This document shows, piece by piece, positions 44,563-47,897 of a DNA stretch of 64,000 nt. Source of the DNA: Escherichia phage vB_EcoM_ESCO10; sequence record OM386655.1; one strand, 5' to 3'. The position numbers and the translations under genes are program-made. The stretch's first letter is position 1. The number at the start of each line of letters is the position of its first letter. The notes under the pieces are model-generated. The model was given only the letters and a program-made list of their open reading frames with translations, was not told where the DNA came from and searched no databases.

Positions 44563-44580
44563 AGGAACCCAAAGGTTCCT
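44563..44580 (-). terminator. intrinsic terminator AGGAACC-uuug-GGUUCCU plus U-run
   Basis: Perfect 7-bp stem followed on minus strand by TTTTTGGGTTT; directly after the stop of small ORF 44580..44684. Confidence 0.55.
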
Positions 44581-44684
44581 TAGTTTTTGAAGTGGGCTGC
44601 TATTAAACCTATAGCTAGACCTGTCGCTAGGCCTAGAATAACGGCAAAGATGCAGAGTAACAAGAACTCTACTCCGAAGCTCAT
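44580..44684 (-). CDS. small membrane peptide (34 aa), not in ORF track
   Basis: MSFGVEFLLLCIFAVILGLATGLAIGLIAAHFKN; ATG overlaps gp52 stop (ATGA); followed by terminator. Confidence 0.4.
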   Translation of the reverse strand: MSFGVEFLLLCIFAVILGLATGLAIGLIAAHFKN

Positions 44685-46060
44685 AGAGCCTCCAAATCTT
44701 TAACGTACTCGGTCACTACATCAGTAGTTTTCCAGTATTGGTGCTCTTCTTTCTTAGCCTTGGCTTCCAAAGCCAGTTTCTTAGCTTCGTCAGATGTGAT
44801 GTGGAAAATATTCATTGCTACGAGTTTATCAGCGTATTCACCGTAGACTTTATTACTAGCCAATTCCTCAGTTAAAACTTTGCGAGTTTTACCTTGGATA
44901 ACTACTACACCATCAATAACATCTTTAATGAATGTGGCTTTAGCCAGTGCCAGTTTAAATGCTTGTTCGGTTTCGACGATTTTACCGTCAATACGTTTTT
45001 GAACAAAGGTCTTACGGACCTCAACGAAATCACGAATCAGTTCAACAGCATCTTCGTAAACCTTGAGCTTACCTTTCTCATTAATAACTGTCAAGTTTTG
45101 TGAACGACGTTCGATTAACCCGAAGTCCTTCATAATTTTTTCGTGCTTCTTATTTTCTTCAGTAGGTAATTCATATTCTTTACGAATTTTTACCTTGAAG
45201 CCGAAACCATTCTCATCGCAGTCGTCATCATACGTGATATACCCTTTGTCTTCCAGAGGGTCCAGTACTTTGGCCACGTATGTTTCACGGTCGTATTTGT
45301 ATGGGATTTCTGTGATATGCATTTGGGTTCGGGATGTGAACTTATACGTACCACGTAGTTCATAACTTCCAGGTTCAATCTCAATCACGTCTCCGCGGAA
45401 TTCCGGGTAAGCCACTTTAGGCTTAGTTACTCGTTTTTCTTGGAGAACCTGCAATACAGCTTTCTTAACAGAATCAAAACTATGAGGAAGAATATTAGTT
45501 GCATAACCAGTTGCAATACCGGAAATACCATTAAGAAGAACAGTAGGAATAATAGGCAGATAAAAAGCCGGTGGCTTATGTTCGACGTCCGCATGAACCG
45601 GTGCATATTCTGTATCCTTATAAACCTTTGCGAAATTAGTTCCAATACGAGCAAAAATATAACGAGAGGCAGCCGCTTTTTGAACTAAACGAGAGCCGAA
45701 GTTACCTTGTCCATCTAACAAAGGGAAGTTATTGTTCCACGTGTTGGCCATCAAAGCCCCGGCTTCCTGGGCAGAGCCTTCACCGTGGTGGTATCCAAGA
45801 TCAGCTACACCACCCGCAATAGAAGCAAGTTTGTGGAATTTTTCTTTATTACCACGAGCCATATCAAGACAACGAGCAACTACAAATCGTTGTACAGGTT
45901 TAAAGCCGTCAATCATATTTGGAATGGCCCGGTTTTCGACAGTATACATTGCATAAGCCAACGCTTCATTGTCGATAATGCTTTTTAAGTCACGTCGAGT
46001 AAAAGCATCGTCGTAAACATCTAAAGCTTGTTTAAAAAGAGTATCAATTACATCAGCCAT
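44681..46060 (-). CDS. 52: DNA topoisomerase II medium subunit gp52
   Basis: 459 aa; type IIA topoisomerase A-subunit-like N-terminal region with catalytic-Tyr neighbourhood; T4 gp52 is 442 aa. Confidence 0.8.
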   Translation of the reverse strand: MADVIDTLFKQALDVYDDAFTRRDLKSIIDNEALAYAMYTVENRAIPNMIDGFKPVQRFVVARCLDMARGNKEKFHKLASIAGGVADLGYHHGEGSAQEAGALMANTWNNNFPLLDGQGNFGSRLVQKAAASRYIFARIGTNFAKVYKDTEYAPVHADVEHKPPAFYLPIIPTVLLNGISGIATGYATNILPHSFDSVKKAVLQVLQEKRVTKPKVAYPEFRGDVIEIEPGSYELRGTYKFTSRTQMHITEIPYKYDRETYVAKVLDPLEDKGYITYDDDCDENGFGFKVKIRKEYELPTEENKKHEKIMKDFGLIERRSQNLTVINEKGKLKVYEDAVELIRDFVEVRKTFVQKRIDGKIVETEQAFKLALAKATFIKDVIDGVVVIQGKTRKVLTEELASNKVYGEYADKLVAMNIFHITSDEAKKLALEAKAKKEEHQYWKTTDVVTEYVKDLEAL

Positions 46061-46064
46061 AATT

Positions 46065-46205
46065 TTACCATACTAGTGAATGAATAGCCATAATAACATC
46101 GGAAATAAAAAGCACAACTTGGATAAGTCCGAACATTACTCCATAATACAGTGCTACTAACAAAGCAGCAAGGGCTAACGAGTAGCCCAAGATTTGTTTA
46201 ATCAT
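46065..46205 (-). CDS. small hydrophobic membrane peptide (46 aa), not in ORF track
   Basis: MIKQILGYSLALAALLVALYYGVMFGLIQVVLFISDVIMAIHSLVW; ends 5 nt before gp52 ATG; ATGA overlap with upstream peptide gene. Confidence 0.4.
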   Translation of the reverse strand: MIKQILGYSLALAALLVALYYGVMFGLIQVVLFISDVIMAIHSLVW

Positions 46206-46366
46206 TTATTAACCACTGATTCTAGAAATTTGACTAAGGCATCCAGTACAAACCATGTGCAAATAAATCCTGTAAAAAAATCACCCGGGACCCATACACC
46301 TGTAGCAAAAAGAGTCACAGCAACGATAACAGCTACGAGCCAGATAAAAGTAAAAACTGTTTGCAT
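46202..46366 (-). CDS. small hydrophobic membrane peptide (54 aa), not in ORF track
   Basis: MQTVFTFIWLVAVIVAVTLFATGVWVPGDFFTGFICTWFVLDALVKFLESVVNK; RBS GAGGA upstream. Confidence 0.4.
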   Translation of the reverse strand: MQTVFTFIWLVAVIVAVTLFATGVWVPGDFFTGFICTWFVLDALVKFLESVVNK

Positions 46367-46378
46367 ATTTTCCTCACA

Positions 46379-46394
46379 GGCGTCCGAAGACGCC
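46379..46394 (-). promoter_or_regulatory. UUCG-tetraloop hairpin GGCGUC-uucg-GACGCC just 5' of an RBS
   Basis: Perfect 6-bp stem upstream of RBS of ORF 46202..46366. Confidence 0.4.
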
Positions 46395-46446
46395 GGTAAT
46401 TTTAAGATTATTACGATGCCATTGCATCACATGTTCGTTATAGAAA

Positions 46447-46620
46447 TTACTCATATATACCACACATTTTGCATAAACGTTCAAAACATATATATCCGCC
46501 ACCAAAACACATCGCGACAGCGACTTTATCATTAAATGGCGCACCAAAGGCCATAAAGGCTCCAGCCATTGTGAATAAAGCTAAAACAAATATATAACCT
46601 GTTACAAGTAGATGTTTCAT
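46447..46620 (-). CDS. small membrane protein with Cys-rich C-terminus (57 aa), not in ORF track
   Basis: [57 protein letters not shown]; ATG overlaps ndd stop (TAATG). Confidence 0.4.
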
Positions 46621-47069
46621 TAGTATGCCTGCAGAATGAATTTAAAGTTATCAGCCAGGATTCGGTTCATTTCTTCCAGGGTCTGGAGGTCTGAACTATG
46701 ATTACGAGTGAAAGCCATTGCAATTTGGCCTTTACCAAAACCTGTAGTCAGAGGTTTCATTTTAGAAGCAGGTACATAAAGAACTTCATACAGGACACTG
46801 TTAGTTTTCATGGTACGGTTGGCTTGAGAACGAGCTGAACGAATATTCTTAAGAACACCATCCAGACCTTGTCCTGAGCGCTGGTTACCTACATAGAAGC
46901 GAGCAGCTACGATACGGTTTTCACCAACACCTTTAACAAAGAAATAGAAGCCTGGTTGGGCTGCTGTTTCTTTAGAAGGCCTGCCAATTTTGTATTCGCC
47001 GTTCATAACGTAAGCAACGGTAGTAGCACCAGCAGTCAGAACATTTTTGCGAGTCATATAAGTAGTCAT
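46620..47069 (-). CDS. ndd: nucleoid disruption protein Ndd
   Basis: 149 aa; strong similarity to recalled T4 Ndd ([10 protein letters not shown] ... [24 protein letters not shown] ... [19 protein letters not shown]). Confidence 0.85.
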
Positions 47070-47113: not shown

Positions 47114-47143
47114 CATTATAACATGATTCTCGAGGTTGTAAAC
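47114..47143 (-). promoter_or_regulatory. early promoter GTTTAC-N16-TATAAT for ndd
   Basis: Upstream of ndd RBS GAGGA. Confidence 0.5.
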
Positions 47144-47754: not shown

Positions 47755-47871
47755 TCAGAAGAAATAGTTAAAATATACACGTACATGGTCAATCATAAAA
47801 GCGATTGGGAAAATGCATAATACCATAAACAGAATAAACATGTTCCAAATTGCTTTAAGTAACTTTTTCAT
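47755..47871 (-). CDS. small membrane peptide (38 aa), not in ORF track
   Basis: MKKLLKAIWNMFILFMVLCIFPIAFMIDHVRVYFNYFF; RBS GGAG 7 nt upstream; promoter at 47898..47926. Confidence 0.4.
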   Translation of the reverse strand: MKKLLKAIWNMFILFMVLCIFPIAFMIDHVRVYFNYFF

Positions 47872-47897
47872 AATCATCTCCATTAGTTGATAGGTCT

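Follow-up and report, generated by a model that had tools for sequence, protein, structure and literature searches.

Conserved small genes, including an stp orthologue, in a shuffled accessory interval between ndd and gene 52 of phage vB_EcoM_ESCO10

The window analysed here is a 64-kb stretch of the genome of Escherichia phage vB_EcoM_ESCO10, a Dhakavirus-like T4-type phage. Its ndd-52 interval carries four small minus-strand genes in the order ORF57, stp, ORF54 and 52.1, the last of these being ORF46. The genes and signals of the interval and its flanks are as follows.

47115..47143, minus strand: candidate early-type sigma-70 promoter upstream of ndd (GTTTACA-N16-TGtTATAAT)
46620..47069, minus strand: ndd, nucleoid disruption protein, 149 aa (Pfam PF06591 Phage_T4_Ndd, 1.9e-65; phrog_1102, 2e-55)
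46447..46620, minus strand: ORF57, predicted small membrane protein of 57 aa, 'A' family (phrog_5941, 4.6e-22, full-length over residues 1-57)
46374..46454, minus strand: stp orthologue encoding a 26-aa peptide (Pfam PF08133 Nuclease_act, 4.4e-15; phrog_6763, 3.7e-17)
46379..46394, minus strand: C(UUCG)G tetraloop hairpin GGCGUCUUCGGACGCC in the last stp codons (G-V-F-G-R), from the sequence and comparison among relatives
46364..46376, minus strand: junction TGAGGAAAATATG, comprising the stp stop, a Shine-Dalgarno (SD) sequence and the start codon of the slot gene, identical in relatives
46202..46366, minus strand: ORF54, predicted membrane hairpin of 54 aa, 'B' family (phrog_9347, 2.3e-25, full-length over residues 2-54)
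46065..46205, minus strand: gene 52.1 (ORF46), hydrophobic protein of 46 aa, DUF7396 (PF24129, 9.3e-23; phrog_3595, 6e-25)
46090..46114, minus strand: predicted MotA-box middle promoter TGCTTTT-N12-TATTAT in 52.1 codons 31-39, from its motif and as the orthologue of T4 P52
44681..46060, minus strand: gene 52, topoisomerase II medium subunit, 459 aa, the downstream anchor (ORF; annotated orthologues)

The stop of ndd and the start of ORF57 overlap as TAATG, the 3' end of ORF57 overlaps stp by 8 nt (ATGAGTAA), and ORF54 and ORF46 share an ATGA. A strong SD sequence precedes ORF54 (GAGGAAAAT-ATG). The flanking products are 59.9% (Ndd) and 77.2% (gp52) identical to their T4 counterparts. The initial annotation had described three ORFs of 46, 54 and 57 aa here; they lie on the minus strand at exactly the positions listed above, and the ATGA and TAATG overlaps and a ribosome-binding site, GAGGAAAAT, are all present, in support of its reading of the genes as translationally coupled. 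It had also called the ORFs back-to-back and unannotated, and neither term holds. The 80-nt gap that separates ORF57 from ORF54 is filled by a fourth gene, stp, which that reading overlooked, and the exact proteins are in GenBank under the name of this phage, with wrong product names: UPW37980.1 (ORF46), UPW37981.1 (ORF54) and UPW37982.1 (ORF57). Annotated homologues also exist in dhaeg, VR5, JS98 and T4. The value of the present description is in part corrective, in that stp is missing from the source record and the product names of three ORFs there are wrong.

The product of the overlooked gene matches PF08133 at 55.3 bits (cutoff 25) over a length of 26 residues. Twenty of the 26 residues are identical to T4 Stp, including 15 of 18 in the functional N-terminal part, and by this resemblance the gene is an stp orthologue. 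T4 Stp is a 26-residue inhibitor of type Ic restriction (EcoprrI) that thereby triggers the PrrC anticodon nuclease, an activity residing in its N-proximal 18 residues (PMC3014915); its target range is type Ic restriction by EcoprrI/EcoR124I, and its family is that of an anticodon nuclease activator (PF08133). The changes relative to T4 are H5Y, F12W and Y13H, together with a different C-terminus; F12W and Y13H are common to JS98, VR20 and VR7, and H5Y is found in NC-G. Like its T4 counterpart, the gene lies downstream of ndd and has the hairpin at its 3' end followed by the SD junction, whereas T4 stp begins at the ndd stop and that of ESCO10 lies beyond ORF57. It is the only one of the four that the source record leaves unannotated, several relatives likewise carry it unannotated, and the exact 26-aa peptide is absent from a 15-billion protein collection. 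Of the genes in the interval, it alone has an established role related to defence. The initial annotation had placed its ORFs in the interval where T4 has ac and stp, which is right; ac itself is absent from ESCO10, and the membrane or host-defence phenotypes to which it alluded are conjecture.

The hairpin in the last stp codons, which marks the left junction of the variable slot, is kept in T4, ime09, JS98, NC-G, dhaeg, VR20 and VR7, where its changes are wobble-compatible or in the loop and the codons GTC, GGA and CGC are fixed. The junction that follows, TGAGGAAAATATG, is identical before ac in T4, before an ac-like gene in JS98 and NC-G, and before ORF54 in the window, dhaeg, VR20 and VR7. 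A search of the region for structured RNA, this hairpin included, returned no Rfam match at E<=1.

At the other end of the interval, ORF46 is a known gene, 52.1 of T4, which the initial annotation did not recognise. It aligns with PF24129 over residues 1-46 of 46 at 80.6 bits (cutoff 27) and shares 44 of 46 residues (95.7%) with T4 gp52.1, the two substitutions, K4Q and L41I, both being conservative. Judged by this identity, ORF46 is the orthologue of T4 gp52.1 ('Uncharacterized 5.1 kDa protein in Gp52-ac intergenic region'), which has the same 46 aa, the same 4-nt spacing before gene 52 and the same P52 motif. The gene is present in 729 phage records, and gp52.1 is a near-universal 46-aa hydrophobic protein among T-even-type phages. 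In all loci compared, it occupies the same position, 4 nt from the gene 52 ATG. It is the most constrained protein of the locus, at 95.7% identity to T4 versus 77% for gp52 and 60% for Ndd, and the window and T4 copies differ by 14 synonymous and 3 non-synonymous changes.

Part of this constraint appears to lie in the DNA. We took as the criterion for a MotA middle promoter a TGCTT(t/c)a box followed after 12+/-1 bp by a good -10 (TAtaaT), together with orthology to a mapped T4 start. The element at 46090-46114 (TGCTTTT-N12-TATTAT) has both properties. The start of the middle promoter P52 has been mapped in T4 to 165227 (PMC2988021), which is 7 nt after the -10 of the T4 copy of the element, and the corresponding start in the window is predicted at about 46083, leaving 23 nt to the ATG of gene 52. 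By motif and position the element is the orthologue of T4 P52 and a predicted promoter in this phage. The motif is kept at the DNA level in 16 of 16 distinct 52.1 copies, and third codon positions are invariant in five of the nine codons 31-39 versus three of 37 elsewhere (p=0.004). The presence of the gene 52 middle promoter within codons 31-39 therefore accounts for part of the extreme conservation of gp52.1, and any mutagenesis of 52.1 must allow for it. T4 survives the loss of 52.1-ac-stp-ndd-denB in the deletion saDelta9 (PMC6071114). A determinant of phosphatidylglycerol stimulation mapped with the same deletion (PMC6071114) was considered as a function of 52.1 or ac, an assignment made impossible by the partly overlapping rII-DD2 deletion, which also abolishes the stimulation.

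ORF54 occupies the slot that ac holds in T4, between the stp hairpin and SD sequence on one side and the overlapping 52.1 start on the other. Its AF2 model (pLDDT 80.7) consists of a helix over residues 2-22, a GVWVPG turn and a second helix over residues 29-52, so that ORF54 models as a two-helix membrane hairpin. Homologues occur in 49 phage records (tblastn), the family has 16 clusters at 90% identity, and when homologues outside T4-like phages were sought in a word-indexed profile search, the named matches were all T4-like. T4 Ac (51 aa, two predicted helices) resembles ORF54 in slot, size class and predicted two-helix hairpin; it differs in belonging to another PHROG, with homology undetected. 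The idea that ORF54 is a divergent Ac, of the T4 or the JS98 type, was rejected: hhalign gave a probability of 2.1% over 12 columns, with shallow profiles, and local and tblastn classification places the two in separate families. Kinship among ORF57, ORF54, Ac and 52.1 was likewise rejected, at hhalign probabilities of 0.15-2% and again with shallow profiles. In JS98 and NC-G an ac-like gene coexists with an ORF54-like one, which argues against simple functional redundancy of the two.

ORF57, by comparison, has no counterpart in T4. Its homologues are found in 61 phage records (tblastn), and an exhaustive profile search of 1.84e9 representatives delimits a family of about 10 clusters at 50% identity, with members of 57-61 aa; two long proteins that surfaced as possible remote homologues (E 1e-4 to 1e-3) matched only over 18-19 hydrophobic residues and were treated as spurious. 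In all loci, those of the most divergent members included, ORF57 starts at the ndd stop. The AF2 model is of low confidence (pLDDT 63), with a helix over residues 2-24 and a broken second helix, and would fit either a hairpin or a single anchor with a periplasmic tail. The residues G8, G20, P28, I44, F46-E47-R48 and G54 are invariant. The membrane character that the initial annotation had predicted for the three ORFs is supported by GRAVY values of 1.0-1.75 (hydropathy; all three start with ATG) and by the models, two helices for ORF54 and a long helix with a broken second for ORF57.

We conclude from their conservation that ORF46, ORF54, ORF57 and stp are conserved coding genes. Family HMM E-values for the three ORFs range from 1e-22 to 1e-25 (Pfam/PHROG), and dN/dS is 0.17-0.57 for ORF57, 0.18-0.32 for ORF54 and 0.05-0.08 for 52.1 against T4-type copies, where ndd, as a yardstick, gives 0.13-0.22. 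The reality of the ORFs had been made to hang on their conservation in related phages, and homologue searches, dN/dS and synteny in about 30 phages all bear it out. Hydrophobicity by itself is a weak argument, since a GRAVY above 1 is reached by 10 of the 124 ATG ORFs in the 64-kb window that are 40-70 aa long; the decisive evidence is conservation. The small genes are also already known, having been catalogued as T4 52.1/DUF7396, stp and two PHROG families. Many T4-like genomes list homologues of them as hypothetical proteins, those of phrog_9347 and phrog_5941 including dhaeg_270/dhaeg_269, VR5 gp146/gp145, VR7 gp281 and Marfa_279/280. The families of ORF54 and ORF57 are both small and confined to phages, with membrane proteins of 50-60 aa as their members.

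What varies among phages is the membership of the interval. Across about 30 T4-like phages we find 10 architectures that all observe the fixed order ndd-[ORF57]-[stp]-[ac]-[ORF54]-52.1-52. The interval is a combinatorial cassette array in which recombination at conserved junctions adds, removes and exchanges members, and these junctions appear to be the ndd stop, the stp hairpin with its SD sequence, and the 52.1 start. A scar of such recombination is visible in JS98 and NC-G, where 52.1' is joined to stp' at a 7-nt microhomology. The window copy is, to judge by its nearest relatives, itself a mosaic, nearest Dhakavirus in ndd and 52.1, Tequatrovirus in ORF57 and Gaprivervirus in ORF54 (ndd is 95% identical to that of VR5, ORF57 93% to that of JK23 and ORF54 95% to that of VR20). 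ORF57 and ORF54 are adjacent in Klebsiella phages; they are not an obligate pair, as all four combinations of presence and absence occur in coliphages. Scans of viral contigs added few loci (6 and 22). In sum, the cluster is one more shuffled stretch of accessory genes, ordinary and already catalogued, and it serves as a compact illustration of how cassettes are exchanged combinatorially, in fixed order and at defined junctions, with a scar still to be seen in JS98 and NC-G.

Modular shuffling in the hyperplastic regions of T4-like phages has been described for promoter-early stem-loop (PeSL) elements, with ndd.4/ndd.5 as nearby cases (Arbiol 2010; Comeau 2014; PMC4122927). The present interval is similar in that short conserved sequences with a stem-loop and an SD flank the variable small genes and appear to be the sites of exchange. 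It differs in that the stp hairpin-SD junction lies partly in coding sequence with no promoter in between, and in that the junction on the right falls in the region of the 52.1 start codon. The stp junction was rejected as a PeSL cassette, in which a stem-loop, an early promoter and an SD sequence occupy an intergenic spacer: there is no -35/-10 between stem and SD sequence, the stem-loop is inside the stp coding sequence, and only 12 nt separate the stem from the ATG.

A consensus scan upstream of ndd found an 11/12 match with an extended TG, and a T4-early-type promoter at this site likely drives ndd-ORF57-stp-ORF54-52.1-52. Taken as a whole, the explanation that we consider best, and moderately probable, is a four-gene early/middle unit built of shuffled cassettes and encoding putative membrane proteins of host takeover. 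The likeliest reading of ORF54 and ORF57 is that they are early inner-membrane host-takeover proteins. We propose that ORF54, ORF57 and gp52.1 would be made early after infection from the ndd-upstream promoter, with their translation coupled, and would insert in the host inner membrane as helical hairpins, there binding host inner-membrane complexes by helix-helix contacts. All three would be dispensable accessory functions of host takeover rather than essential genes. ORF54 may then be a non-homologous functional alternative to Ac. Ac has been proposed to be a membrane protein that impairs AcrAB-TolC (bioRxiv 10.1101/2025.06.30.662393; PMC13250531), a model put forward in a preprint as a hypothesis from expression phenotypes and a predicted structure (bioRxiv 10.1101/2025.06.30.662393), and ORF54 could similarly impair AcrAB-TolC efflux or envelope permeability. 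Taken jointly, the steps of this specific mechanism, with early inner-membrane proteins acting on host complexes, are put forward tentatively, as less likely than not. A broader version, which we regard as rather doubtful, would make ORF54, ORF57, Ac and gp52.1 interchangeable membrane effectors, each docking on a different host inner-membrane machine (AcrB, or an abortive-infection/exclusion system) and swapped between genera according to the diversity of host envelopes and defences. If the membrane-effector reading is true, ORF54 would be a new non-homologous modulator of efflux or permeability or an anti-defence peptide, and if either ORF54 or ORF57 targets host efflux pumps or membrane defence, it would add to the few phage micro-membrane proteins that have been characterised.

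It is also conceivable, though on balance unlikely, that ORF54 and ORF57 resemble stp in being accessory genes that counter defence or trigger it, for example as inhibitors or triggers of membrane-embedded abortive-infection/exclusion systems, an account that overlaps with the best explanation. Their rapid swapping would then be due to an arms race. The variable accessory region does include the known anti-restriction gene stp, the distribution of ORF54 and ORF57 is patchy with transfer across genera, and the region is dispensable in T4 (PMC6071114); accessory regions that hold one counter-defence gene are, moreover, enriched for others (bioRxiv 10.1101/2023.04.06.535777). Set against this, the small ORFs show no PADLOC or other family link (membership of defence families in PADLOC and of NCBIfam families was sought, and none was found), and their dN/dS of 0.2-0.5 indicates purifying, not diversifying, selection. 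Both genes also occur in Klebsiella phages without stp, which speaks against a functional tie to it.

The preferred reading, in which ORF57 and gp52.1 act on host complexes in the inner membrane, competes as well with one in which their partners are phage proteins: Ndd, which moves host DNA to the envelope, would have ORF57 as its partner or anchor in the membrane, and the topoisomerase subunit gp52 would have gp52.1 as its partner there. We hold this to be distinctly improbable. ORF57 always begins exactly at the ndd stop, 52.1 always directly precedes gene 52 and encodes the most constrained protein here, and the T4 record annotates Ndd as binding host DNA to the membrane. Operon packing alone, however, predicts such tight adjacency, and the embedded gene-52 promoter/leader explains part of both the linkage and the conservation of 52.1. 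T4, VR20 and VR7 have Ndd without ORF57. Topoisomerase mutants show a DNA-delay phenotype. T4 saDelta9, by contrast, is viable without 52.1 (PMC6071114).

The Cys-rich tail of ORF57, to which the initial annotation had drawn attention, is present, with four cysteines (C38, C45, C50 and C53); it is a feature of the lineage, and the cysteines vary across the family. In VR5, Marfa and P0023-P0030 these positions are replaced by S, V, A, I, T or G, and the family keeps its G-[LA]-P turn and [FI]-[ED]-R motif despite this loss. A conserved metal-binding or disulfide motif was rejected on these grounds, and the tail, not being conserved, is unlikely to be the functional core. It is accordingly very improbable that ORF57 works through the tail by metal or disulfide chemistry, or as a secreted Cys-rich peptide cleaved at AFG|AP; its N-terminus does resemble a signal sequence, cleaved or uncleaved, with a putative small -3/-1 motif, but its hydrophobic stretch, at about 22 residues, is longer than one would expect if the signal peptide were cleaved.

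The notion that these frames stand open by chance in AT-rich DNA and go untranslated is effectively refuted: small hydrophobic ORFs do arise often by chance, as the GRAVY count indicates, and an antisense ORF covers the same region, but the family matches are strong, dN/dS is well below 1 with change mostly synonymous, frames, lengths and order persist in Klebsiella and uncultured T4-like phages at identities as low as about 35-45%, and the antisense ORF itself is not conserved. This antisense ORF, of 113 aa, spans the region on the plus strand at 46194-46535, and it was rejected as a real gene on finding its frame closed in phages that share the same architecture.

The minus strand carries all genes of the ndd–52 part of the window, and the cluster of three small genes recognised there by the initial annotation is real but incomplete, a fourth gene, stp, having been overlooked.

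Features of the ndd–52 interval
47143..47115, minus strand: T4-early-type promoter GTTTACA-N16-TGtTATAAT, 11/12 consensus match, directly upstream of ndd
47069..46620, minus strand: ndd, 149 aa; Pfam Phage_T4_Ndd, 1.9e-65
46620..46447, minus strand: ORF57, 57 aa; phrog_5941, 5e-22
46454..46374, minus strand: stp, 26 aa, absent from the initial list; Pfam Nuclease_act, PF08133 'anticodon nuclease activator' / phrog_6763, 4e-15, 55.3 bits (cutoff 25)
46394..46379, minus strand: C(UUCG)G hairpin GGCGTCTTCGGACGCC, 3' end of stp
46366..46202, minus strand: ORF54, 54 aa; phrog_9347, 2e-25
46205..46065, minus strand: ORF46 (52.1), 46 aa; PF24129 (DUF7396) / phrog_3595, 9e-23, 80.6 bits (cutoff 27)
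46114..46090, minus strand: MotA-box middle promoter motif TGCTTTT-N12-TATTAT, 52.1 codons 31-39
46060..44681, minus strand: gene 52, 459 aa; annotated orthologues

The small ORFs are coupled to the early transcription unit. Both junctions claimed from the sequence, TAATG at the ndd stop and ORF57 start and ATGA between ORF54 and ORF46, are present, as is the claimed ribosome-binding site, a strong Shine-Dalgarno sequence TGAGGAAAATATG ahead of ORF54; ORF57 and stp additionally share an 8-nt overlap, ATGAGTAA. The hydrophobicity ascribed to the three ORFs is strong, with GRAVY values of 1.0, 1.4 and 1.75, but these alone are weak evidence because the window is AT-rich and 10 of its 124 small ATG ORFs lie above 1.0. 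All four small frames have full-length matches to existing Pfam and PHROG families, and Nei-Gojobori dN/dS estimates for the window against eight to nine relatives are 0.17-0.57 for ORF57, 0.18-0.32 for ORF54 and 0.05-0.08 for 52.1 against T4-type copies (14 synonymous and 3 non-synonymous changes), with ndd as yardstick at 0.13-0.22. The small ORFs are identifiable coding genes of hydrophobic hairpin character. A 113-aa opposite-strand ORF was rejected because its frame is interrupted in phages that share this architecture. Searches of NCBIfam, PADLOC and Rfam gave no match.

Although described as unannotated, the exact three proteins are deposited in GenBank as UPW37980.1, UPW37981.1 and UPW37982.1 of vB_EcoM_ESCO10, under product names that are obviously wrong: 'recombination endonuclease subunit' for 52.1, 'RNA polymerase binding protein' for ORF54 and 'sliding clamp' for ORF57, possibly reflecting a shifted product list. 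Homologues in dhaeg, VR5, JS98, VR7, Marfa and T4 carry hypothetical or membrane protein labels. The truly unannotated gene is stp, because the UPW accessions are consecutive and the exact 26-aa Stp sequence does not occur in a collection of 15 billion proteins. The stp ORF is likewise present without annotation in the dhaeg, NC-G, VR20, VR7 and JK23 records, and in the JS98 RefSeq entry the ORF57-like and ORF54-like genes also lack annotation. ORF57, ORF54, stp and 52.1 all belong to catalogued families, and their novelty is low; the initial interpretation was right in part.

All small ORFs of the ndd–52 interval were classified for about 40 loci from about 30 distinct phages (Dhakavirus, Tequatrovirus, Gaprivervirus, Klebsiella Marfavirus-type and uncultured T4-like contigs), which shows that the interval is an ordered array of cassettes that occur in varying combinations. 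Gene order is constant, ndd-[ORF57]-[stp]-[ac]-[ORF54]-52.1-52, in ten architectures.

Architectures by phage
T4: stp-ac-52.1
JK23, ime09: ORF57-stp-ac-52.1
VR20, VR7: stp-ORF54-52.1
VR5, Marfa: ORF57-ORF54-52.1
Window, dhaeg, IME341: ORF57-stp-ORF54-52.1
JS98, NC-G: ORF57-stp-ac-stp'-ORF54-52.1
Other contigs: ORF57-ac-52.1; ac-52.1; ORF57-52.1

52.1 was found in all loci whose sequence reaches that far, and the ORF57 start, wherever the gene is present, coincides with the ndd stop, the most divergent members included. The small ORFs are accessory, mobile and confined to T4-like phages of Enterobacteriaceae; among 50,697 phage records, tblastn matched ORF57 in 61, ORF54 in 49 and 52.1 in 729. 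Kinship among ORF57, ORF54, Ac and 52.1 was considered and rejected, profile-profile probabilities being just 0.15-2%. An extra 42-aa membrane ORF, MKVLLICLWTAIAVSFATGALIPNTITSIIMSIIILYYALVR, lies between the ORF54-like and 52.1-like genes of one uncultured T4-like contig (L017, 3332-3460) and is possibly a sixth cassette family.

The nearest relatives differ between segments of the window. Dhakavirus VR5 shares 95-96% nucleotide identity in ndd and 52.1, its homology being interrupted exactly between 46629 and 46377; Tequatrovirus JK23 is 93% identical in ORF57 but only 65% in ndd, and Gaprivervirus VR20 is 95% identical in ORF54 and 70% in ndd. The slot that holds ac in T4 and ORF54 here is bordered on the left by the stp 3' end with its hairpin, followed by conserved nnTGAGGAAAATATG, and on the right by the conserved 52.1 start, ATGATTAA. 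In JS98 (L001, 1585-1740) and NC-G (L003, 1585-1710), a fused remnant separates the ac-like gene from the ORF54-like one: a 5' fragment of 52.1 joined at the microhomology GAGTAAT to a second, degenerate copy of stp. This remnant is a recombination scar of cassette insertion. Cassette exchange in this interval resembles in behaviour the PeSL-mediated modular shuffling described for the neighbouring ndd.x genes (PMC4122927), but the promoter that defines PeSLs is missing from the stp/slot junction.

ORF46 is gp52.1, identical to T4 at 44 of 46 residues, with invariant YYG (20-22), VLF-I-S-D (31-36) and W46. The MotA-box motif, a predicted middle promoter for gene 52, is kept at the DNA level in 16/16 distinct 52.1 copies examined, and persists in Marfa and uncultured phages despite divergence of the remaining gene. 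Within the motif, codon choice is fixed for Val (GTG), Leu (CTT) and Asp (GAT), and the third position does not vary in 5/9 motif codons versus 3/37 codons elsewhere (Fisher p=0.004). The orthologous -10 element in T4 ends 7 nt upstream of 165227, which is given as the start of P52, a middle promoter mapped by experiment (PMC2988021, where Table 1 prints '65227' between entries 153011 and 166702). P52 and the invariant peptide core VLFISDVI therefore fall on the same stretch. Upstream of this peptide core, differences between the window and T4 are nearly all synonymous, which together with this overlap makes 52.1 a protein gene with additional DNA-level constraint. A second Mot-like site (46143-46167) occurs in Dhakavirus-type copies only.

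The interval is, as suggested, the one in which T4 carries ac and stp; an stp orthologue is present here and ac is absent. The 26-aa peptide matches T4 Stp at 20/26 residues, and at 15/18 in the N-proximal part, where both EcoprrI inhibition and PrrC activation reside; by inhibiting type Ic restriction, Stp unleashes PrrC (PMC3014915). The C-terminal 8 residues are reported dispensable, consistent with JK23 stp (L007, 1367-1453), whose 28-aa product has a replaced C-terminus, ...NLKNFGILGFKNS, and which lacks the UUCG hairpin. In that hairpin the Val, Gly and Arg codons are fixed, changes being wobble-compatible or loop-only; the hairpin may serve to stabilise mRNA, as a barrier to processing or as a junction for recombination. 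It lies 12 nt ahead of the ORF54 start codon, and the window holds eleven perfect C(UUCG)G tetraloop hairpins with stems of at least 4 bp, 8/11 on the minus strand, that of the genes examined.

From a 16-sequence alignment ORF54 is modelled, with a mean pLDDT of 80.7, as a hairpin of two helices (H2-22 and H29-52) joined by the turn G-V-W-V-P-G; F7, F20, G23 and P27 are invariant in the family. The weaker ORF57 model (pLDDT 63) predicts helix 2-24 and a loop, followed by a second hydrophobic helix, short and interrupted at GGGY, and by a final short helix at the C-terminus. When 1.84 billion representatives were searched exhaustively with a profile, only about ten clusters of ORF57 relatives emerged, all 57-61 aa. 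They share a G-[LA]-P turn, an [F/I]-[E/D]-R motif that follows the second hydrophobic segment, and a C-terminal Gly.

T4 deletion saDelta9, which lacks 52.1, ac, stp, ndd and denB, is still viable (PMC6071114), and T4 Ac is proposed to insert into the inner membrane and impair AcrAB-TolC (bioRxiv 10.1101/2025.06.30.662393). We tentatively propose, as the likeliest reading, that ORF57, ORF54 and gp52.1 may be early, dispensable inner-membrane proteins whose small size would leave them only binding to other membrane components, and that ORF54 could be the positional, non-homologous alternative to Ac, perhaps modulating a similar target. Counter-defence or defence-trigger functions, suggested by the association with stp, seem rather unlikely, and would overlap with such membrane binding without excluding it. 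That the small proteins serve as partners of the adjacent phage proteins Ndd and gp52 is less probable again. A cysteine-based function for ORF57 is highly improbable: its Cys-rich tail exists, but the cysteines are freely replaced across the roughly ten clusters, and the tail is therefore a feature of the lineage and not of the family.

Micro-membrane genes are abundant across the entire rIIB-to-52 region. A 34-aa hydrophobic ORF, MSFGVEFLLLCIFAVILGLATGLAIGLIAAHFKN (44580-44684, minus strand), overlaps the gene 52 stop at ATGA, in the position of motA.1 in T4, and a 42-aa hydrophobic ORF, MEMIMKKLLKAIWNMFILFMVLCIFPIAFMIDHVRVYFNYFF (47755-47883, minus strand), is similar to small membrane ORFs of the Ndd.4 type in JK23 and ime09, MKKIVKAIWNVVIILVVLSIFPIVLMIDVLNAYFGFM.
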